Below, in pieces: positions 13,624-28,014 of a stretch of DNA of 40,893 nucleotides. A model generated the notes under the pieces. That model ran no database searches. It saw only the letters and a list, made by a program, of their open reading frames with translations, and was not told the DNA's origin. The stretch lies in sequence record PZ513996.1. The stretch is one strand, 5' to 3'. The DNA comes from a phage. The number at the start of each line of letters is the position of its first letter. Positions within the stretch are counted from its first letter, which is position 1. The position numbers and the translations under genes are program-made.

Positions 13624-16074
13624 ATGCAACACGAAACATTAGAACAGAAAGTAGAACGCCAGTTACAGCTAGAGAAAGATTACCGCACTCGTAGCCTGAA
13701 CAAGTCGCGTGAGCTGGTGCAGAAGGCACTGGCAGCAGGTAACTTAAGCAGCCTGCCTAAGGTAAGTCGCATGATTGCAGCAGCCTATGATACTGTTGCT
13801 CAAGGCATTGACGAGATGAAGGCACAGAAGACCGCAGGCGTCGGCGGTAAGTACCGCAGCATTATCCGTCTGGTCCCTACTGACGTTCTCGCTGTAATGG
13901 CACTCACTAAATGCATTGACTCCCTCTTCCTTAAAGAGTCTGGTGGAAGCCGTACATCTGCACAAGCTTTGCTGGCTAGCCTAGGGCGCCAGGTTCAAGC
14001 CGAGGTCCTTAGCATACAGTTAGAAGTAGTTGCACCCGCATATATGAATCGTGTATTTGAGTACTTGAAAGAACGTAACACTACAAGTCAGTCGCATATT
14101 ATGAAGACCTTACGTGCTTCAGCAGAGAATGTGCACTACGGGCATGAACCTTGGTCCGCTTCTCAGTGTGTAGCAGTAGGTAAATTAATCCTACAACCTG
14201 TGTGGGAAACAGGCCTGTTCACGTGGGATAAGAGCACTGACGCAACCCAGCTACAATACTTGGCACCGTCTGAAGTATTAGCTGAGGTACTAGGCGATTT
14301 AGTACTGGACGCAGATACCGTAGAGATTAAACCCCCAATGATTGTACCTCCGCAGAAGCATGTAGACATGTTCTCAGGTGGATACCTTCTAAGCAGCACT
14401 TGCAAGCGCGGTACTTACCATAATCACCAGATTACTCGTGCAATGAAACGTGAAGTAGCAGAGGCATTCAAGCAGGCAGAGGGACTGAAGGATATGCTGA
14501 ACAAGGCGCAGGAAGTGCCTTACGTTATCAACAAGGAAGTACTTAATCTGCTTAACCAAGCACGTCGTGAAGGTGTAACGACAGGTATGCCTAGTTCCTA
14601 CCCAGCCCCTAAACCTGAGTGGTATCTGGACGGTGTACCTAAAGAGGATTACACCGAGCGCCAGATGGATGACTTCCAGACTTGGAAGATGAATATGCGT
14701 AACTGGTACATCCAAGAGCGTACTCGCGTAAGTAAGTTGCGTTCCATGGTGACACTGGTTCAACTCTGCGAGGAGTTTAAGGATGAGAAAGAACTGTACT
14801 TCCCAACCTGCGTTGACTGGCGCTACCGCCTGTACTTCAAATCAAGCCTGCACCCTCAGGGTCCTGACATGCAGAAAGCTTTGCTCTCCTTCAGTCGGGC
14901 AAAGCCTCTGGGAGAGCGGGGTTTGTTTTGGCTCAAGGTACACGTCGCTACCTGCTATGGTTATGATAAAGCCTTATTCGAAAAGCGTGCAGCTTGGACT
15001 GATGCTAATATCGAGCAGATTCGACTTGTCGCATCAAATCCGTTTAATGCAGAAGCTTTCAGGAGTGCAGACAGCCCGTGGTGTTTTCTGGCAGCCTGCA
15101 TCGACCTCGTTGCTGCTATTGACTCGGGCAGCCCGGAAACATACGAATCACGCATTCCGGTGGCTATGGATGCAACCAACTCGGGGCAGCAGCACTTCGC
15201 CGCGTTACTGCGTGACTCAGTAGGTGGTCGTTTAGTTAACCTGTTCTGGGAGGGTAACGAAGAGAAAGCAGATATGTACATGGACGTTAAGCGCCGTACT
15301 GATGCTAAGGTCATCATGGACCTGGACAATCCTGACTTCGTAGTGCAGGCTAACTACTGGCGTGGGAACGAGATTACCCGCAGCATGGCTAAACGTCCAT
15401 GCATGACACACGTATACTCGGCTACTGTGCGCTCTTGCTCAGAGTACATCCTTCAGTCTGCACAGGAAGAAGGTTACGAAGGGACGGAAGAGTACAGCCT
15501 GTTCAAGCTGGCAGGATATCTGAGTACTCGCATGAAGGCAGCAGTAGAGGACGCTAACCCAGCAGCTACTGAGGCGATGAAATATGTACAGTCACTGTGC
15601 TATCGTGTACCAGCAGCCAACCACCTTCAATGGAAGACTCCGTTAGGCGGGCTGGTTATCAACCGATACACTGAATCAGAAGAGACTAAGGTTTCTGTTA
15701 AGAGCATGAACCTGACACACCTGCTGGTGTACAACCGTAACTACAATGTAAACAACAAGCGTAAGGCTAAGTCAGGCATCTCCCCTAATTGGGTGCACAG
15801 CTTAGACGCTACTCACTTAGGTATGACTATCTCTGCATTCTCAGGAGACATTATGCCTATCCACGACTCGGTAGCTACTCACGCTTGCGATGTAGATGAA
15901 ATGCATTCTGCTATCCGCGAACAGTTCCTACGTCTGTACACAGAGCATGACGTACTTCAGGAGATTACTGATGCGGCAGTAGCTTGTGGGGCAGACTTAG
16001 AAGGGCTGGAGTTACCAGCTAAAGGTTCTTTGGACCTTAAGCAGGTACTGGGTAGCAGATTCTTTTTCTGTTAG
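13624..16074 (+). CDS. single-subunit DNA-directed RNA polymerase (T7 RNAP family)
   Basis: 816 aa; AMDATNSGQQHFAALLRD (cf. T7 DGSCSGIQHFSAML) and PIHDSVAT (cf. T7 HDSFGT) catalytic motifs. Confidence 0.85.
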   Translation: MQHETLEQKVERQLQLEKDYRTRSLNKSRELVQKALAAGNLSSLPKVSRMIAAAYDTVAQGIDEMKAQKTAGVGGKYRSIIRLVPTDVLAVMALTKCIDSLFLKESGGSRTSAQALLASLGRQVQAEVLSIQLEVVAPAYMNRVFEYLKERNTTSQSHIMKTLRASAENVHYGHEPWSASQCVAVGKLILQPVWETGLFTWDKSTDATQLQYLAPSEVLAEVLGDLVLDADTVEIKPPMIVPPQKHVDMFSGGYLLSSTCKRGTYHNHQITRAMKREVAEAFKQAEGLKDMLNKAQEVPYVINKEVLNLLNQARREGVTTGMPSSYPAPKPEWYLDGVPKEDYTERQMDDFQTWKMNMRNWYIQERTRVSKLRSMVTLVQLCEEFKDEKELYFPTCVDWRYRLYFKSSLHPQGPDMQKALLSFSRAKPLGERGLFWLKVHVATCYGYDKALFEKRAAWTDANIEQIRLVASNPFNAEAFRSADSPWCFLAACIDLVAAIDSGSPETYESRIPVAMDATNSGQQHFAALLRDSVGGRLVNLFWEGNEEKADMYMDVKRRTDAKVIMDLDNPDFVVQANYWRGNEITRSMAKRPCMTHVYSATVRSCSEYILQSAQEEGYEGTEEYSLFKLAGYLSTRMKAAVEDANPAATEAMKYVQSLCYRVPAANHLQWKTPLGGLVINRYTESEETKVSVKSMNLTHLLVYNRNYNVNNKRKAKSGISPNWVHSLDATHLGMTISAFSGDIMPIHDSVATHACDVDEMHSAIREQFLRLYTEHDVLQEITDAAVACGADLEGLELPAKGSLDLKQVLGSRFFFC

Positions 16075-16755
16075 ATGGGTAAAGTTGTATGGTCTTTATT
16101 TGACGGTTCAGGGTATGCTGTTCTTCCCTTCGCTGAGGCCGGTTACAAGTGCTACTGCTTTAACTCTGACGATGCCGACCACGGGCCTTATAGTGGTATT
16201 AAGGTTAAGCACCTTAATATTACATACGTTAACGTGTGGTTAGATAGTTCATTTGATTTTGAAGAGACGCCTGATTTAATACTCGCATTCCCTCCATGTA
16301 CTGACTTAGCAGTAAGCGGCGCCGCGCACTTTGCAGCTAAGATAGCTAAAGACCCAGAGGTACAGAACAAGGCAGTAGCTACGGCTAAGCTAGCTGCTAT
16401 CTTAGGGGATAAGTACGCTGTACCTTACATGATTGAGAATCCAGTAAGTGTACTGAGTAGTAAGTGGCGTAAGCCGGACTACTCCTTTCACCCATACCAG
16501 TATGGCGGCTATTTGGATACTGACGACAGTCATCCTGAGTTCCCAGACTATATAAAGCCACGGGACGCTTATCCTAAGAAGACGTGCTTATGGGTAGGTA
16601 ATGGTTTTAATATACCTGAAGTTAAACCTGTAGAAGTGGAAGCAGGGTACAGCGCCCAACATAGTAAACTGGGCGGTAAATCTGTTAAGACTAAAGTAAT
16701 TCGCTCATTAACTCCAAGAGGGTTTGCTAAGGCAGTGTTCCTAGCAAACCAGTAA
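16075..16755 (+). CDS. putative small C5-cytosine methyltransferase-like protein
   Basis: 226 aa; LFDGSGY (motif I-like FxGxG), FPPC (motif IV PC-like), IENP (motif VI ENV-like) with spacing as in C5-MTases; no obvious target-recognition domain. Confidence 0.4.
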   Translation: MGKVVWSLFDGSGYAVLPFAEAGYKCYCFNSDDADHGPYSGIKVKHLNITYVNVWLDSSFDFEETPDLILAFPPCTDLAVSGAAHFAAKIAKDPEVQNKAVATAKLAAILGDKYAVPYMIENPVSVLSSKWRKPDYSFHPYQYGGYLDTDDSHPEFPDYIKPRDAYPKKTCLWVGNGFNIPEVKPVEVEAGYSAQHSKLGGKSVKTKVIRSLTPRGFAKAVFLANQ

Positions 16756-16854
16756 ATGCAGAAGTGGTCAGAGGCTGTTGAGCGTGGAGACACGGCAGCA
16801 GCTAAGGATTACGAAGAGCTTTATCAGATTTGGAAGGGACGCGAGTCCAAGTGA
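16756..16854 (+). CDS. hypothetical small protein
   Basis: 32 aa ORF tiled between neighbours. Confidence 0.2.
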   Translation: MQKWSEAVERGDTAAAKDYEELYQIWKGRESK

Positions 16855-19881: not shown

Positions 19882-20682
19882 ATGACTATCAATCTGAACG
19901 CACTGTCTTCCCTCGTTAACGAAACCGTAGCTACTCAGGGCATCGACCAGTCAGTAACACAGGCTGGCGGTAACTTCGCTGATGTACTGCTTCCGCGTGG
20001 TACTTACTTTGGTCGCTTCATGGAGTACATCGAGTTAGGTAAAAAGATTCCTATGCACATGGGTAAGCCGACTGGCAAGCCAGCAGTAATGAACGTGCGC
20101 TTAGGCTTCATCGTTTACACCCCTGATGGTTCTATCAAGCGTATTAATCCGTTCCCAATGGCCATTAGCAGCTTCGAGAAAGCTAAGTTTAAACAAGTCT
20201 TCGACAAGATGAACTATGACGGCACGCTGAAGCACATGGCACAACGTCTAGGCCAAGCGTTCATGTTTGAGGTTGAGCAGTACACCAGTAAGGCTGGTAA
20301 GACTTCTAACACCATCGACTTCCTGAGTCTGCGTACTCTACCTAAGTTTGACCCGCAGACTGGCGCTCCGGTAGAGCTGCCAGCATTGGACGAATCAGGT
20401 CTTCGTCTGTTCCTGTTTGATAACCCGACTAAAGAAACTTGGGATTCTCTGCATATTGAGAAGAACAATTTTCTGCAAGAAGATATTTTAAGCGCTGTTA
20501 ACTTCGAAGGCTCGGCTCTTCAGCAGATGCTAATGGGCGATGTTCCTGACATGGCGGCTATGGCTGCACCTGCTTCAGTATCTGCACCTGCTGCACCTGC
20601 TGCACCTGCTGCACCTGCTGCTCCAGTAGCTCCAGTAGCTCCAGCCGCACCTACATTCGCTGTTGTTCCTCCTGCACTTTAA
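19882..20682 (+). CDS. hypothetical protein with C-terminal Pro/Ala repeat
   Basis: 266 aa; C-terminus APASVSAPAAPAAPAAPAAPVAPVAPAAP low-complexity tail. Confidence 0.3.
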   Translation: MTINLNALSSLVNETVATQGIDQSVTQAGGNFADVLLPRGTYFGRFMEYIELGKKIPMHMGKPTGKPAVMNVRLGFIVYTPDGSIKRINPFPMAISSFEKAKFKQVFDKMNYDGTLKHMAQRLGQAFMFEVEQYTSKAGKTSNTIDFLSLRTLPKFDPQTGAPVELPALDESGLRLFLFDNPTKETWDSLHIEKNNFLQEDILSAVNFEGSALQQMLMGDVPDMAAMAAPASVSAPAAPAAPAAPAAPVAPVAPAAPTFAVVPPAL

Positions 20683-21669
20683 ATGCCACGCATTAACGCT
20701 ATTAAGCTGTTCACTAAAGAGCAACACCAAGAGATTCTCAGCAAGTACAAATCCAACGCTGAGGCAGCGGCAGCTTATAACAAGGCATCTGGTCTGAGCG
20801 AGCCAGTAGCTTACCGTCAACTGGTTAAATACTGGCGCAGAATTTATGAGGCAGCTAATGGCAGTAAAGCAAAAGCTAACAAGGGTTTGGTTGAAGCTCG
20901 TAAACTCATCCAGCCTTCCCCGACCGATGATATAGGAACTACTGACGTACCTGAGATGTGCCATCGCATCCTTGTGGTCGGAGACTTGCACGCTCCTTAT
21001 ACTCATCCTGACGCTCTTGACTTCCTTAGCAGCGTCCGGGATAGCTATGCTCCTGACATGGTAGTGCAGGTAGGTGATGAGACAGATGGGCACGCTATCA
21101 GCTTCCACAACTCTGACCCTGACCTAGACAGCGCAGGGGTTGAGCTGGAGAAAGCTAAGATGGTACTGGAGAAGGTGCATGCACTATTCCCTAACCTACT
21201 GGTATGTGACTCTAACCACGGCTCACTTATCTATCGCAGAGCCAAGGCGCATGGCCTTCCGGTACAGTTCATCAAGAAGTACCGCGACATACTGTTCCCT
21301 GAGCATGGTGCTAAGAAGTGGTCTTGGTCAGATGCGTGGGTACTGAATACTCCGCTAGGCCCGGTTCGTTTTCAACACCAAGTAGCCGGTGACTTGCTGA
21401 TTAATGCTGCTCATGAGCGGATGTCTATGGTAATAGGTCACTTCCATGGAGCCTTCGATGTAACTTATAAAGCAAGTTCAACATCGCTGTACTTCGGGGC
21501 GCATGCCGGCTGCTTAATTGACCATAAGGCAATGGCATTTGCTTACGGGAAGCTAAGCCGTAACAAACCGATTCTGGGAATTTTAACAATAACTGAAGGC
21601 TGTCCAAGCCTAGTACCTATGCTTCTAGATGATGAGGGTCGTTGGATTGGAAGAAACAAACGTACTTAA
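20683..21669 (+). CDS. calcineurin-like metallophosphoesterase
   Basis: 328 aa; VVGDLHAPY, GDETDGH, DSNHG, GHFHG phosphoesterase motifs in canonical order. Confidence 0.7.
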   Translation: MPRINAIKLFTKEQHQEILSKYKSNAEAAAAYNKASGLSEPVAYRQLVKYWRRIYEAANGSKAKANKGLVEARKLIQPSPTDDIGTTDVPEMCHRILVVGDLHAPYTHPDALDFLSSVRDSYAPDMVVQVGDETDGHAISFHNSDPDLDSAGVELEKAKMVLEKVHALFPNLLVCDSNHGSLIYRRAKAHGLPVQFIKKYRDILFPEHGAKKWSWSDAWVLNTPLGPVRFQHQVAGDLLINAAHERMSMVIGHFHGAFDVTYKASSTSLYFGAHAGCLIDHKAMAFAYGKLSRNKPILGILTITEGCPSLVPMLLDDEGRWIGRNKRT

Positions 21670-22251
21670 ATGAACTATCAAGAAATCTGCGAAAAGTATA
21701 AGTTAGGAAGACTGCACAGCGTTGACCTGCGCCGCGCTAACCTGCGCGACGCTGACCTGCGCGACGCTGACCTGAGCAGTGCTAACCTGCGCGACGTTGA
21801 CCTGCGCGGCGCTAACCTGCGCTACGCTAACCTGCGCGGCGCTGACCTGACCGGCACTGACCTGCGCGGCGCTGACCTGAGCGGCGCTGACCTGCGCGAC
21901 GTTGACCTGCGCGGCGCTGACCTGCGCGGCGCTGACCTGACCGGCACTGACCTGCGCGACGCTGACCTGCGCGAAGCTGACCTGCGCAGCGCTAACCTGC
22001 GCCGCGCTGACCTGCGCGGCGCCAAGACTGTCATTATATACGGAGAAACGTACTTCATTAGTATCTGTAATGACATAGTGCGTGTAGGATGTCAGCAGCA
22101 TACGGCAGCAGAGTGGCGCAGCTTCAGTAAGCGCCAGGTTGCGGAAATGGACGGTAAGAGTTCGCTGAAGTATTATCCACGCTTACTAGACCTGATTGAC
22201 TTTTACTGCGGTAAGGGTGAGCGTCCTGATTGGGTTAATGTAAGCGAATAA
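21670..22251 (+). CDS. pentapeptide-repeat protein with C-terminal globular domain
   Basis: 193 aa; ~20 consecutive A(D/N)L(R/S/T)x pentapeptides ([20 protein letters not shown]...), then a 70-aa non-repeat C-terminus. Confidence 0.85.
21715..22021 (+). repeat. coding tandem repeat array, 15-nt period (gctgacctgcgcggc-like), pentapeptide-repeat gene 1
   Basis: near-identical 15-mers at nucleotide level; generates spurious long ORFs on the opposite strand. Confidence 0.9.
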
Positions 22252-22440
22252 ATGAAAGTTCGCATTCTTAACTACAGTGCATATGGTGTAGGCGAGATGT
22301 TCGAGTACATGGATAGATTCCCGGTAGGCAGTGTTCACGAAGTATATGAGTTCTTCCCTGACACAGGAGAGGTTGATTTAGGAGATGAAGATGAGGAGTT
22401 TACTTTTGCACCCTCTGAGTATGAAGTTGTGGAGAAGTAG
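22252..22440 (+). CDS. hypothetical small acidic protein
   Basis: 62 aa; C-terminal DLGDEDEEFTFAPSEYEVVEK. Confidence 0.3.
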   Translation: MKVRILNYSAYGVGEMFEYMDRFPVGSVHEVYEFFPDTGEVDLGDEDEEFTFAPSEYEVVEK

Positions 22441-22558
22441 GTGCACGGGAGGAACCGCTCAAGCTCGTACTATCTACCCAGAGCTTTCAGGAGGGCACCG
22501 GGATTAAAGTCCCCGGTGACTATCAATCCGCTTTGCTATCTGCATCTCGTCTTGATGA

Positions 22559-22607
22559 AATGAATGACCTTGCACATTATTTTATTGGGATGGAACAAGA
22601 TGGCTAA
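22559..22607 (+). repeat. 49-nt duplicate of 24849..24897 (aatgaatgaccttgcacattattttattgggatggaacaagatggctaa)
   Basis: read directly; duplicates the 3' end of the exonuclease-domain ORF across the start of the polymerase-domain ORF. Confidence 0.85.
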
Positions 22608-23751
22608 GTTAGCTTCAGACTTCTTCAAAACATACAAAGAAATGACTACACGCCAGAAGGACCTCGGCTTCTATGAAGTACGTGAGACTAATAAGGATGG
22701 CAGTCTGCGTAAGGTGACGGGCATGCTGCCGTACGTCATCCCTACATCAGCAGATGGTTCTGGCATCATTCACCACAGGTCGAATCACTGCTCAACTACT
22801 ACCGGACGCCTGTCAACATCTAACCCGAACATGCAGCAGCTGCCGCGTGAGTCTAAGGTTAAGCAGATTCTGCGTAGCCGCTATGGTGAGCAGGGTATGA
22901 TTGCACAGTGTGACTACTCAGCTATGGAGGTTGTAATGGGCTGTGTAATCACTGGTGATAAGAAATTACTGAGCTTGCTTGAAGCCGGTACGGATATGCA
23001 CTGCTATCGTCTAGCATTCCAAGAAGGTATGCCTTATGAAGAAGTCTACGAGCTTTGCCATAACCTGGATGCACCGGACCATAAAGGATGGAAGAAGAAG
23101 CGAACAGCCATCAAAACCTTCAGCTTCGCAGCACAATATGGAGCATCCGCTAAAGGACTGGCGTTCGCCTCAGGTGCTAGCTTAGCCGACGCTGAGAAGT
23201 TCTTAGCTAACGAGGAGGCACTATTCCCTGAGTCTATTAAGTACAGGGATGTCATTGCAGCTGAAGTAAACCGTACTGCGCTGCTGGAGCCTATACGCCG
23301 TGAACAAGCAGATGACGGCAGCTGGCGTATCTATCGCGAGGGCTACTTCACTACGCCTTGCGGTACTCGCTACCGCTTCCGTCAGAAGCCGGTGTGGCGC
23401 GAAGGTAAGCAGGTAATGGACTTTAAGCCCACAGAGATGGCTAACTATCCGTTTCAAGGATCAGGTTCCCTGCTTATGCTTATTGCAACCGGAATGGCTA
23501 TGAGGGCTGGTATAGCTGACAATTGGATGGGGGGTAAATGGTGTTTGCTGGTTACCGTCCATGACTGTTTGTACATAGATTGTGCTGACGAAGAGACGGC
23601 CCGTAAGGCGGGTAAGCTCATCAAAAACGTTATGGAAGGAGCCCGTGATAGGATGCTACAGCTGTGGCCTAACTTTGGCATACTGTCTGAAGTTAAGTTT
23701 CCCGCTGAATGTGAGATTGGTAAGTCCTTTAAAGGGGAGATGGTAATTTAA
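22564..23751 (+). CDS. DNA polymerase, family A, polymerase (palm/fingers) domain ORF
   Basis: 395 aa; GRLSTSNPNMQQLP, DYSAMEV (motif A), KRTAIKTFSFAAQYG (motif B), VHD (motif C). Confidence 0.8.
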   Translation: MTLHIILLGWNKMAKLASDFFKTYKEMTTRQKDLGFYEVRETNKDGSLRKVTGMLPYVIPTSADGSGIIHHRSNHCSTTTGRLSTSNPNMQQLPRESKVKQILRSRYGEQGMIAQCDYSAMEVVMGCVITGDKKLLSLLEAGTDMHCYRLAFQEGMPYEEVYELCHNLDAPDHKGWKKKRTAIKTFSFAAQYGASAKGLAFASGASLADAEKFLANEEALFPESIKYRDVIAAEVNRTALLEPIRREQADDGSWRIYREGYFTTPCGTRYRFRQKPVWREGKQVMDFKPTEMANYPFQGSGSLLMLIATGMAMRAGIADNWMGGKWCLLVTVHDCLYIDCADEETARKAGKLIKNVMEGARDRMLQLWPNFGILSEVKFPAECEIGKSFKGEMVI

Positions 23752-24897
23752 ATGAGTAGCATTCTAATTTGGGATATTGAAACTCAAAATCATCCGTACT
23801 ACGGCGGGGTCGCAACTCCGTACTGCCCTGATAACTACATCGTAGAATCAGGCTTCCGCATCGATAGGACTATGCCGGATGGGACTGTACAGTGCAGCGA
23901 GGTGCAGAGTGTACGCTATGAATCCCGAACTGATTTCTTAGCAGCTGACCCTAAGCAGTGGCTACCTATTCAGGATGATACGTGGTTAATCGTAGCGCAC
24001 AACGCAGCGTACGAGATTAGCTGGGCGCTGACCTTTGCCCGTGAGCAGTTCGAGTCGTTCCTTAGACGAGGAGGTCGAGTCTTTGATACTATGCAGGGCG
24101 AGTACATTGCCAGCGACTTCCAGAATCTTTACCCGTCACTAGATGAGACTGCCCCTAAGTATGGCGGGTCACACAAAGTCGACGGCGTTAAGCTACTATG
24201 GCAGCAAGGGGTTCTGACAGCAGACATTGACCCTATGCTACTACATGAATACTTAACAGGGCCTAACGGTGACATAGTCAACACAGCGCTGTGCTTCTAC
24301 GGGCAATGCGCAGTATTTGCGGAACGTGGACAGATGCCTATGGTCTGGGAAAGGATGGAGGCAGTCGCAGCTCTGGCATACTGTGAGTTCAATGGCGTGT
24401 ACGTTGATATGCCTACAGCCAGAGCTAATCAGAAGGAGCAGGAGGACGCTATTCGGAATCTGCGGGAGTTACTTCAGACATTCTTGCCAGAATTGCCAGA
24501 GGGCTTCGAGTTTAAATGGAATAGCGGTTATCATATGTCCGCTTTAGTGTATGGCGGCACGGTTAAGTACAAGTGCAAGGTTCCTTATGACCCACCTAAA
24601 TACATTAAGAAGGAAGTACAGGACGGGGTGTATAAGTCTGGGCGTAATAAGGGTATGCCTAAGTTCATAAAAGTAGACACTGACGAGCAAGCTATGAAGT
24701 GGGGTGAACGCCTGTACCGCTTCGACGGGCTGGTTAATATTCAGGACCTACCTCAGTCTCTACGTGAGAAGTACGGAGACCGCGGTGAATACAAAGGTGC
24801 TCAAACATTAGCGGATGGTAGCCCTGTGTACAGCACAGGAATGGACGCAATGAATGACCTTGCACATTATTTTATTGGGATGGAACAAGATGGCTAA
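23752..24897 (+). CDS. DNA polymerase, family A, 3'-5' exonuclease domain ORF
   Basis: 381 aa; IWDIET (Exo I DxE) and AHNAAYE (Exo II-like); 3' end shares 49 nt with the region upstream of and overlapping the polymerase-domain ORF start. Confidence 0.75.
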   Translation: MSSILIWDIETQNHPYYGGVATPYCPDNYIVESGFRIDRTMPDGTVQCSEVQSVRYESRTDFLAADPKQWLPIQDDTWLIVAHNAAYEISWALTFAREQFESFLRRGGRVFDTMQGEYIASDFQNLYPSLDETAPKYGGSHKVDGVKLLWQQGVLTADIDPMLLHEYLTGPNGDIVNTALCFYGQCAVFAERGQMPMVWERMEAVAALAYCEFNGVYVDMPTARANQKEQEDAIRNLRELLQTFLPELPEGFEFKWNSGYHMSALVYGGTVKYKCKVPYDPPKYIKKEVQDGVYKSGRNKGMPKFIKVDTDEQAMKWGERLYRFDGLVNIQDLPQSLREKYGDRGEYKGAQTLADGSPVYSTGMDAMNDLAHYFIGMEQDG

Positions 24898-26913: not shown

Positions 26914-27684
26914 ATGGCTAACGAGCAATGGCTTAGAGCAGCACAGAGATTGGCTGTTGGTCAAACTGAAAGATTCCGATGCTGCGGTAAAACAGCAGCA
27001 GCAGTAATCAGGAACGAGCCAGATAAGTGGACTTGCTCTTGCTTCAGATGCAAGTCATATCATTCAGAGCGTAAGCAGTACGCTCAATTAGCAGTACCAG
27101 AAGTGCTGGGGCGTGAGTTAGCCGCCCCTCAGGACCTGAAGCCGCTGCCTGAACTGGACGTAGGGCTTCAGCAGTTCCTATACGGATTCTTAATACAGAA
27201 AGGCATCTGGCCTGATATGGTCGGCGACGTTTATTACTCAGAACAATACAAGAGGTTAGTGTGGAAATTATCAACGGGAAGTTACATAGCAAGAGCACTG
27301 CACGAGTACCAGCATCCGAAGTGGGTGATGCTAGGGAAGTCATTACAGTGGGTGCAGCTTGGGAATACTGGAACCATAACGATACTGACCGAGGACTACC
27401 TTTCAGCGCTGAAGGTTCAGCAGGTCTTGGAGAAGTATTCTTCACAGACTGCTCAGGCAATAGCTTTGCTTGGGACGAAGTTTCCGCTTGGGCTTAAGGC
27501 CCAACTTATTAAAGAAGGTAAGCCAGTAATCTGTATGTTAGACGATGACCGTGCAGGTTGGAACGGCACGGTTTCAATTACTAAGCAACTTAAGCCCTTC
27601 GTGCCCGTGCATGATAGGCATCTGAACGTAGACCCAAAGGCTGCTCAATGCAGCCAAATACTTGGAGCACTTGATGGACTTTAA
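26914..27684 (+). CDS. DNA primase (zinc-ribbon + TOPRIM-like)
   Basis: 256 aa; Cys cluster FRCCGK...WTCSCFRC and acidic ICMLDDDRAG motif. Confidence 0.5.
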   Translation: MANEQWLRAAQRLAVGQTERFRCCGKTAAAVIRNEPDKWTCSCFRCKSYHSERKQYAQLAVPEVLGRELAAPQDLKPLPELDVGLQQFLYGFLIQKGIWPDMVGDVYYSEQYKRLVWKLSTGSYIARALHEYQHPKWVMLGKSLQWVQLGNTGTITILTEDYLSALKVQQVLEKYSSQTAQAIALLGTKFPLGLKAQLIKEGKPVICMLDDDRAGWNGTVSITKQLKPFVPVHDRHLNVDPKAAQCSQILGALDGL

Positions 27685-28014
27685 ATGTTACCAGTAGAAG
27701 AAGTAACAGAGCAGTACTGGCGTATGCTCGAGAGCCAGAGCAGCTTAGGCCTTAAGACGTTAAAGGACGTACCGATTGAACTGCGTAAGCTCTGCCCTTT
27801 AAAATGGTGCAGGGACTACGATACTAAGGAAGGTATGCGGTTGTTGGTAGGTTATTATAAGTATGATGCTGAAAGGGCCTCAGAGGTCCTGCGACGCATC
27901 AATTTCGATATAGTAAGGCAGTTGCAGCAGCTGGGGTATGAGGGCGCTAAGCAGGCGTTTAAGGCTGCTTGCATTGAGTATTATGAATGGCAGACATCCT
28001 ACAGAGGCATCTAA
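27685..28014 (+). CDS. hypothetical protein
   Basis: 109 aa ORF. Confidence 0.3.
   Translation: MLPVEEVTEQYWRMLESQSSLGLKTLKDVPIELRKLCPLKWCRDYDTKEGMRLLVGYYKYDAERASEVLRRINFDIVRQLQQLGYEGAKQAFKAACIEYYEWQTSYRGI

Follow-up and report, generated by a model that had tools for sequence, protein, structure and literature searches.

Can a protein of only 226 amino acids be a functional DNA cytosine-C5 methyltransferase (C5-MTase)? The question is raised by an open reading frame (ORF) in a 40,893-nucleotide stretch of phage DNA (sequence record PZ513996.1, the whole of which is referred to as the window). The original prediction had placed this ORF at positions 16075..16755 of the plus strand, and the ORF list agrees: the coding sequence (CDS) starts with ATG and encodes 226 amino acids followed by a stop codon. 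It had also pointed to motifs resembling those of C5-MTases and had offered two interpretations, a minimal DNA modification enzyme used for anti-restriction or an inactive relative. Our analysis makes it highly probable that the ORF encodes an active, S-adenosylmethionine (AdoMet) dependent DNA C5-MTase belonging to the compact phage 'Dcm' family (PHROG 757). The protein is already known: it is 100% identical to XXQ42850.1, annotated as 'DNA methyltransferase' in Escherichia phage vB_EcoP_P64441 (PQ847473; Autoscriptoviridae, Slopekvirinae; a podovirus), PHROG 757 is a catalogued family, and an ortholog has been characterized. The whole window is ~100% identical to PQ847473, and vB_EcoP_P64441 is called the window phage below.

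Family membership and catalytic motifs

The comparison with methylase families that the original prediction had proposed gave a divided result. PHROG 757 ('DNA methyltransferase') matched residues 2-226 with E = 5e-83, whereas the score of the Pfam family PF00145 stayed under the gathering threshold. Conservation was evaluated in a sample of 80 diverse relatives at 35-59% identity. Three alignments were used, containing close relatives (A1), the broader family (A2) and nine canonical C5-MTases (A3); nine canonical enzymes also served as the reference for spacing. All features of the protein described here lie on the plus strand.

Motifs I, IV (with the catalytic Pro-Cys) and VI are present and correctly spaced, as had been claimed; the distance between the catalytic Cys and Glu is 46 amino acids, compared with 38-47 in the canonical enzymes. 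Motif I, SLFDGSG (residues 7-13, 16093..16113), is the AdoMet-binding loop after strand beta1. Its residues F9, G11, S12 and G13 are invariant in A1, and the motif loosens to FD.(S/T)G across the wider family. Motif IV, FPPCTDLAVSG (residues 72-82, 16288..16320), carries the nucleophile Cys75 (nucleotides 16297-16299), and the flexible catalytic loop begins within it; Cys75 is invariant in all 80 relatives, and conservation reaches at least 90% at P73, T76 and G82. Motif VI, MIENP (residues 119-123, 16429..16443), contains Glu121, which presumably protonates or contacts N3/N4 of the cytosine. Glu121 is likewise invariant in 80 of 80 relatives, as is P123, and N122 is conserved to at least 90%.

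The alignment of the family with a single E. coli Dcm sequence by hhalign was in register but not significant (E = 0.029, 0.21), therefore a nine-sequence canonical profile was built, which included E. coli Dcm, KP27 gp137 and others. The family and this profile aligned over 116 columns at E = 9e-5, and motifs I, IV and VI were in register: motif I was paired with canonical LFAGIGG, motif IV with GFPCQAFSxAG, and ENP of motif VI with ENV. The arrangement of these three motifs thus resembles, also in spacing, that of the canonical PF00145 enzymes (E. coli Dcm, M.HhaI, M.HaeIII, KP27 gp137), which are 303-472 amino acids long, compared with 226 here.

It could be argued that the likeness of the motifs is fortuitous and that the protein is an unrelated Rossmann-fold enzyme. 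Such an explanation could draw on the weakness of the sequence-only matches to solved structures: HMMER searches of the Protein Data Bank (PDB) sequences, done both with the single sequence and with a profile, found weak N-terminal matches (E ~0.2), although exclusively to the C5-MTases DNMT3B and M.HaeIII, and the broader A2 profile drifted to dehydrogenases (E 0.06-0.3). The in-register alignment of three motifs at E = 9e-5, the published HHpred result for a related phage protein (AAS23 gp52, see below) and the ranking of structural matches described in the next section all contradict this explanation, and we regard it as effectively refuted.

The compact family is large. Homologs were found by tblastn in 1,537 of 50,697 phage records, among them Drexlerviridae, Dhillonvirus-like siphoviruses, rV5-like myoviruses, Klebsiella Webervirus, phiKO2, whose Gp42 belongs to the family, and Autographivirales; canonical Dcm-like enzymes were found in 363 phage records at E <= 1e-20. 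A collection of 5.8 billion proteins contained 6,310 related clusters. An exhaustive profile search returned 1,995 representatives at 50% identity. Among the best 150 of these almost all had a length of 210-260 amino acids, which indicates that the compact size is the norm of the family and not the result of truncation. In about a third of the sampled records the family members are labelled "hypothetical protein".

There are also shorter relatives, gp12 of Burkholderia phage Bcep1 (181 amino acids) and a protein of the Pf-type Pseudomonas filamentous phage 99-2 (214 amino acids), whose matches to the query extend over residues 67-221 and 67-193, respectively, at ~35% identity. They were considered as bridges to the canonical enzymes and were rejected, both being compact too.

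Predicted structure

The AlphaFold2 model of the protein (predicted local distance difference test score, pLDDT, 87.6; predicted template modelling score, pTM, 0.88) shows a seven-stranded catalytic domain. Local confidence drops below pLDDT 50 at residues 77-79, following the Pro-Cys dipeptide, which is expected, because C5-MTases have a mobile catalytic loop at this position. In a Foldseek search of the PDB the best 27 matches were all DNA C5-MTases, with DNMT3B in first place, and the best matches in BFVD were 'DNA-cytosine methylase' entries with template modelling (TM) scores of 0.78-0.89. The unrelated Rossmann fold, against which the original prediction had cautioned, is thus not what the search returned.

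The catalytic domains of DNMT3A and DNMT3B share 15% identity with the window protein, and in these C5-MTases, too, the recognition loop is unusually small. DNMT3 enzymes are ~285 amino acids long, keep motifs IX and X, read CpG and have to assemble into a dimer or tetramer in order to bind DNA.

The BFVD search also revealed the compact fold as one domain of much larger proteins. In the entries A0A6J5SE15 and A0A6J5NPY6, both from uncultured phages, it is part of 1,100-1,400-amino-acid proteins, one of which is named 'Helicase/UvrB, N-terminal'; the domains have 26-31% identity and TMq 0.62.

Experimentally characterized relatives

Formation of 5-methylcytosine (5mC) and EcoRII-resistant phage DNA have been shown in the literature for orthologs of the window protein. 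The most informative study concerns retron Ec86 and is available as a preprint (bioRxiv 10.1101/2023.08.16.553469; cited in PMC12673091 as Wang et al., Cell Rep 2024;43:114857). The mutants of phage K42 (Drexlerviridae) which escaped retron Ec86 were all affected in a 711-bp gene called "dcm", and expression of K42 Dcm was toxic solely when Ec86 was present (10.1101/2023.08.16.553469). LC-MS (liquid chromatography coupled to mass spectrometry) detected a high level of 5mC in the retron's msDNA with wild-type K42 Dcm, and not with C82A/E128A/K175A/K176A; Dcm was encoded by 34 of the 35 Ec86-sensitive phages (10.1101/2023.08.16.553469).

The residues mutated in K42 Dcm can be traced in the window protein through an ortholog from Hanrivervirus phage egaa. 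The egaa gene is also 711 bp long. Its product, which shares 56% identity with the window protein (E = 5e-91), has Cys, Glu, Lys and Lys at positions 82, 128, 175 and 176, exactly as in the numbering of the K42 Dcm mutant. In the alignment with egaa, C82/E128/K175/K176 correspond to C75/E121/K168/K169 of the window protein with a constant offset of 7. The K42 / KarlJaspers-type Dcm (236 amino acids) and the window protein belong to the same PHROG 757, share the compact size and align over their full length. It must be noted that, as judged from egaa, ~44% of the residues differ, and that the genetic settings are different: K42 is a Drexlerviridae siphovirus whose dcm is located in the early region near a helicase gene, whereas the window phage is a Slopekvirinae podovirus with the gene next to that of the RNA polymerase.

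Two further relatives come from phages whose DNA was tested with EcoRII. The product of gene 52 of Pantoea phage AAS23 is 52% identical to the window protein over the full length (E = 2e-88). According to the AAS23 paper, gp52 had no conserved domain by BLASTP, which parallels the failure of Pfam on the window protein, but HHpred assigned it to the C5-MTases at 99.7%, and the phage DNA was Dcm-type methylated and EcoRII-resistant. Klebsiella phage KP36 encodes gp74 (NC_029099; L009 11553-12245), 48% identical over the full length (E = 2e-68). In the 2013 KP36 paper the phage DNA, with 155 EcoRII sites, was found to be uncut; the genome was said to be without a cytosine methyltransferase and the resistance was credited to the host. 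Because gp74 is a member of the compact family, it is possible that KP36 itself is responsible for the resistance. AAS23 and KP36 differ from the window phage in that they also encode a Dam methylase, whereas the window phage has none and almost lacks GATC. They differ also in that their genomes do not avoid CCWGG (observed/expected ratio, O/E, ~1.0-1.1), whereas that of the window phage does (0.28).

The same data bear on the idea that the protein is a DNMT2-type enzyme, i.e. an RNA (tRNA) cytosine-C5 methyltransferase. The K42 ortholog methylates the DNA part of msDNA (10.1101/2023.08.16.553469), the DNA of carrier phages is EcoRII-resistant, and the ranking of the structural matches lends support neither to a DNMT2-type nor to an unrelated Rossmann enzyme. 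We consider an RNA methyltransferase scarcely credible.

Residue map outside the catalytic motifs

Between motifs I and IV, strand beta2 (residues 25-30 in the model) and the following acidic stretch, together KCYCFNSDDADH (residues 25-36, 16147..16182), resemble motif II, and presumably contact the ribose of AdoMet. At the end of beta2 most of the wider family has Asp; in the subfamily of the window protein there is N30, followed by D32 and D33.

A family-specific ordered loop, HPYQYGGYLDTDDSHPEFPDYIKPRDAYPKK (residues 139-169, 16489..16581), lies between motifs VII and VIII. P140 and Y166 of this loop are invariant in the 80 relatives and many of its residues are invariant in A1. It was modelled at pLDDT > 90 without regular secondary structure, and no counterpart was found in the canonical alignment A3. 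The loop may be a DNA-recognition element.

The loop overlaps a motif VIII-like stretch, YPKKTCLWVG (residues 166-175, 16570..16599), which lies on strand beta7 (residues 170-175 in the model). Y166, K168 and T170 are spaced (i, i+2, i+4) as in canonical QxRxR, with Lys and Thr in place of the canonical Arg residues; Y166 and W173 are invariant, K168 and T170 at least 90% conserved. The distance from Glu to the motif VIII position is 45-47 amino acids here and 41-50 in the nine canonical C5-MTases.

The original prediction had noted that there is no obvious target recognition domain (TRD), and the spacing analysis bears this out: the TRD interval comprises 34 amino acids compared with 99-173 in the nine canonical enzymes. 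We propose that this segment, NGFNIPEVKPVEVEAGYSAQHSKLGGKSVKTKVI (residues 176-209, 16600..16701), may serve as a miniature target recognition region. Its P181 is invariant and LGGKS.KTK is conserved; the C-terminal 51 amino acids contain 8 Lys/Arg and 3 Asp/Glu. The window protein is thus distinguished from the canonical enzymes by YPKKT replacing QxRxR, by 34 amino acids replacing the TRD, and by an extra conserved loop at 139-169. The last segment, RSLTPRGFAKAVFLANQ (residues 210-226, 16702..16752), resembles motif IX (R.LTPRE.ARL) and ends in a helix (residues 215-225 in the model); R210, S211, P214, G216 and A220 are at least 90% conserved. The likeness of RSLTPRGFAKAV to motif IX was recognized by eye, and there are only 16 amino acids after the IX-like RSLTPRG. 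The designations VIII and IX in the C-terminal half should be taken as resemblances only: a PF00145 scan of ten C-terminal fragments gave zero matches, and hhalign of C-terminal sub-alignments, both local and global, was not significant (E = 0.019, misplaced).

The conserved Arg210 has to be discussed in connection with CmoX, a phage DNA cytosine C5-carboxymethyltransferase (333 amino acids, PDB 8yf3), which uses carboxy-S-adenosylmethionine (Cx-SAM) and recognizes GC; it carries SPPC together with a selectivity Arg, and cmoA and a ligase gene are linked to it (PMC12783734). A CmoX-like activity of the window protein, with Cx-SAM supplied by the host's CmoA, would be compatible with the fact that Cx-SAM is made by E. 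coli and would be available to a phage enzyme (PMC12783734), and with a tentative positional parallel between Arg210 and the selectivity Arg of CmoX, both in the C-terminal region. On the other side, the CmoX enzymes are characterized by SPPC and by linkage to phage cmoA and an amide ligase (PMC12783734), whereas the window protein has FPPC and neither cmoA nor a ligase is found among the 53 annotated genes of PQ847473; none of the CmoX hallmarks was seen in the window protein or genome. Moreover, LC-MS on the K42 ortholog found 5mC (10.1101/2023.08.16.553469). We consider carboxymethylation highly improbable.

CCWGG and GATC sites in phage genomes

Frequencies of CCWGG, the Dcm-type site, were compared between phages which carry the compact MTase and relatives which do not. 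CCWGG was not depleted in the carriers AAS23 (O/E 1.02), KP36 (partial sequence, 1.13) and phiKDA1 (0.84), whereas it was strongly depleted in the non-carriers PAS7 (0.07) and ECO104 4-5-2 (0.25). The window phage is the exception: despite its Dcm-type enzyme, CCWGG is depleted ~3.5-fold, with 27 sites observed and 96 expected by the Markov model. CCSGG, CCGG and GCWGC are not depleted in this genome. The window contains 25 CCWGG sites, none within 16075-16755. As the comparison comprises six genomes with one exception, the counts are suggestive: as a test of specificity they give partial support and are not decisive.

GATC is nearly absent from the window phage genome (4 sites and ~136 expected, O/E 0.03), and it is equally scarce in PAS7, ECO104 4-5-2 and phiKDA1 (O/E 0.03-0.08).

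Genomic context

The window is not a natural genomic sequence but an artificial concatenation of predicted CDSs of PQ847473, each running from ATG to stop in coding orientation, with the intergenic DNA removed. In a megablast comparison with PQ847473 the window split into 62 blocks of one CDS each, all but one on the minus strand of the record. At the junctions a stop codon is followed by ATG with 0 nucleotides between them, e.g. CAGTAA|ATGCAG...AAGTGA|ATGCAT; examples of junctions are 16074/16075, 16755/16756 and 16854/16855. The blocks stand mostly in the ascending coordinates of the record, hence along the coding strand the genes follow one another in reverse order. The window opens with three blocks from record 31562-33648, among them the tail fibre gene. 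Because the intergenic context is artificial, any reasoning about operons, promoters or terminators based on the window is unsafe.

This bears on the proposed placement of the gene beside that of the RNA polymerase. In the window the ORF of the single-subunit RNA polymerase (816 amino acids, 13624-16074) directly precedes the MTase ORF. The adjacency itself is genuine, as in PQ847473 the MTase gene is located 39 nucleotides upstream of the polymerase gene, whereas the zero-nucleotide junction and the order seen in the window are artefacts of concatenation. The natural order is endonuclease, DUF3310, hypothetical, methyltransferase, 39 nucleotides, RNA polymerase, then the structural genes, and the MTase gene has its own Shine-Dalgarno sequence, GAGG, 6 nucleotides upstream. 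In Enterobacter phage phiKDA1 the corresponding slot upstream of the RNA polymerase gene is occupied by a gene of 681 bp that is 76% identical; the relative PAS7 lacks a methyltransferase homolog, and two small hypothetical ORFs precede its polymerase gene instead.

Some other features of the window deserve mention. The block that follows the MTase ORF (16756-16854, plus strand) is a 32-codon ORF, MQKWSEAVERGDTAAAKDYEELYQIWKGRESK, for which GenBank annotates no CDS; its counterpart in the record is 15429-15527, which is situated in the natural genome just upstream of the MTase gene. The only block on the plus strand of the record is 22441-22565 (record 21457-21581), a short predicted ORF running opposite to every annotated gene, inside a gap left unannotated in GenBank. 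For the DNA polymerase the annotation has two CDSs that adjoin and overlap (window 22559-23751 and 23743-24897; record 21620-22771 and 22764-23909); the same split is found in PAS7, and it may reflect either a gene that is truly split or a frameshift. Two pentapeptide-repeat proteins are encoded (window 21670-22251, corresponding to record 20490-21071, and record 27205-27792), and the first of these genes holds an internal 193-nucleotide repeat at 85% identity.

Discussion

Several observations weigh against the interpretation of the window protein as an active, CCWGG-specific DNA C5-MTase. With respect to family membership and activity, PF00145 scored 17.1 bits with a gathering cut-off of 22 and covered residues 6-84 only, merely 3 of 80 family members reached PF00145 at E <= 0.01, and the NCBIfam scan of the protein was silent. 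The 226-amino-acid protein has no recognizable GN(S/A)V motif X, and neither HMMER nor hhalign was able to align its C-terminal half with canonical motifs VIII-X. With respect to specificity and role, the CCWGG specificity of the K42 enzyme was taken over from host Dcm, with the msDNA mutants as its only support, and the experiments were done in dcm+ MG1655, in which the 5mC content of msDNA was nevertheless low without the phage enzyme (10.1101/2023.08.16.553469). Host Dcm could be the reason why EcoRII does not cut AAS23 and KP36 DNA. The window phage, a carrier, has a CCWGG O/E of 0.28 (27 sites), like the MTase-less ECO104 4-5-2. Finally, the BASEL study found no connection between phage methyltransferases and restriction resistance.

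The first set of these points would be consistent with an inactive relative, a pseudo-enzyme which has kept the fold and merely binds DNA or AdoMet. In such a protein the lack of a recognizable motif X and of a canonical TRD, the PF00145 score below threshold, and N30 at the end of beta2, where most of the family has Asp, would not be unexpected. We think, however, that this explanation is very improbable. N30 is adjoined by D32 and D33, Cys75 and Glu121 are invariant in the 80 relatives, and ~2,000 representative clusters keep the size of the protein, which points to purifying selection on catalysis. An ortholog with the same key residues yields 5mC and its catalytic mutant does not (10.1101/2023.08.16.553469). 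Of the two options offered by the original prediction, it is the minimal modification enzyme that the invariant catalytic residues and the active ortholog favour.

The CCWGG specificity is the weakest link of our interpretation. The only serious rival is an active DNA C5-MTase whose recognition site is different from or more relaxed than CCWGG, a shorter or degenerate overlapping sequence, e.g. CC or CCW. It would be easier to reconcile with a TRD substitute of 34 amino acids, compared with 99-173 in canonical enzymes. It would also fit some of the retron data: host Dcm of MG1655 neither methylated msDNA nor triggered the retron, whereas the phage enzyme did; the CCWGG assignment in the K42 work was made by analogy; and the ACTGG and CATGG mutants of msDNA both lost defence, which is compatible with a CC requirement as well (10.1101/2023.08.16.553469). 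On the other hand, the DNA of two carrier phages resists EcoRII specifically, CCWGG is undepleted in three of the four carriers and strongly depleted in the non-carriers, and no methylome data indicate a different motif. In view of these data we consider a non-CCWGG site unlikely.

If, as we think very likely, the protein is an active C5-MTase of the compact Dcm family, its mechanism could be envisaged as follows. The large catalytic domain would be complete, with motifs I to VIII on its seven strands. The Pro-Cys motif would supply Cys75 for the attack on C6 of the flipped-out cytosine, the target base would be held by Glu121 of ENP and the K168/K169 stretch, and the methyl group of AdoMet would be moved to C5. 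The 34-residue basic loop and helices, together with the ordered loop 139-169, would stand in for the TRD and presumably read the DNA. The enzyme would be made in the middle, DNA-metabolism phase of infection from the gene located just upstream of that for the RNA polymerase, and newly replicated phage DNA would be methylated, most likely at Dcm-type CCWGG sites. We infer that CCWGG methylation would protect the DNA of the window phage from EcoRII-type restriction and, as a side effect, would expose the phage to methylation-sensing defences such as retron Ec86/Eco1, which the enzyme may trigger.

A more far-reaching idea is that the compact family constitutes a distinct architectural class of C5-MTases, devoid of the canonical TRD and of motif X, in which a mini-module made up of the 139-169 loop and the basic C-terminal helices recognizes the target, possibly as a DNMT3-like dimer and with a specificity other than CCWGG. 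Dimerization is a reasonable idea, because DNMT3B, the best structural match, works as an oligomer, and a specificity unlike that of host Dcm would explain why the phage enzyme, and not host Dcm, methylated Ec86 msDNA and triggered the retron. Taken as a whole we find this proposal possible, though rather doubtful.

The identification of the window protein as a compact Dcm-family enzyme is correct but ordinary, and its value is mostly practical; the residual interest lies in the target site, in the minimal architecture and in the blindness of Pfam to this family. PF00145 misses the commonest type of C5-MTase in phage records, which amounts to an annotation gap. With ~226 amino acids, the compact enzymes are among the smallest natural C5-MTases. 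We found no solved structure for the family, its 34-residue TRD substitute included; it is a reasonable target for structural and enzymological studies and possibly a source of a compact tool enzyme, a value that is not specific to the window. As for the window phage itself, this K1-capsule-type coliphage probably methylates its own cytosines, which bears on its evasion of restriction, on its sensitivity to retron Ec86/Eco1 and McrBC-type enzymes, and on the analysis of its DNA by nanopore and bisulfite methods.

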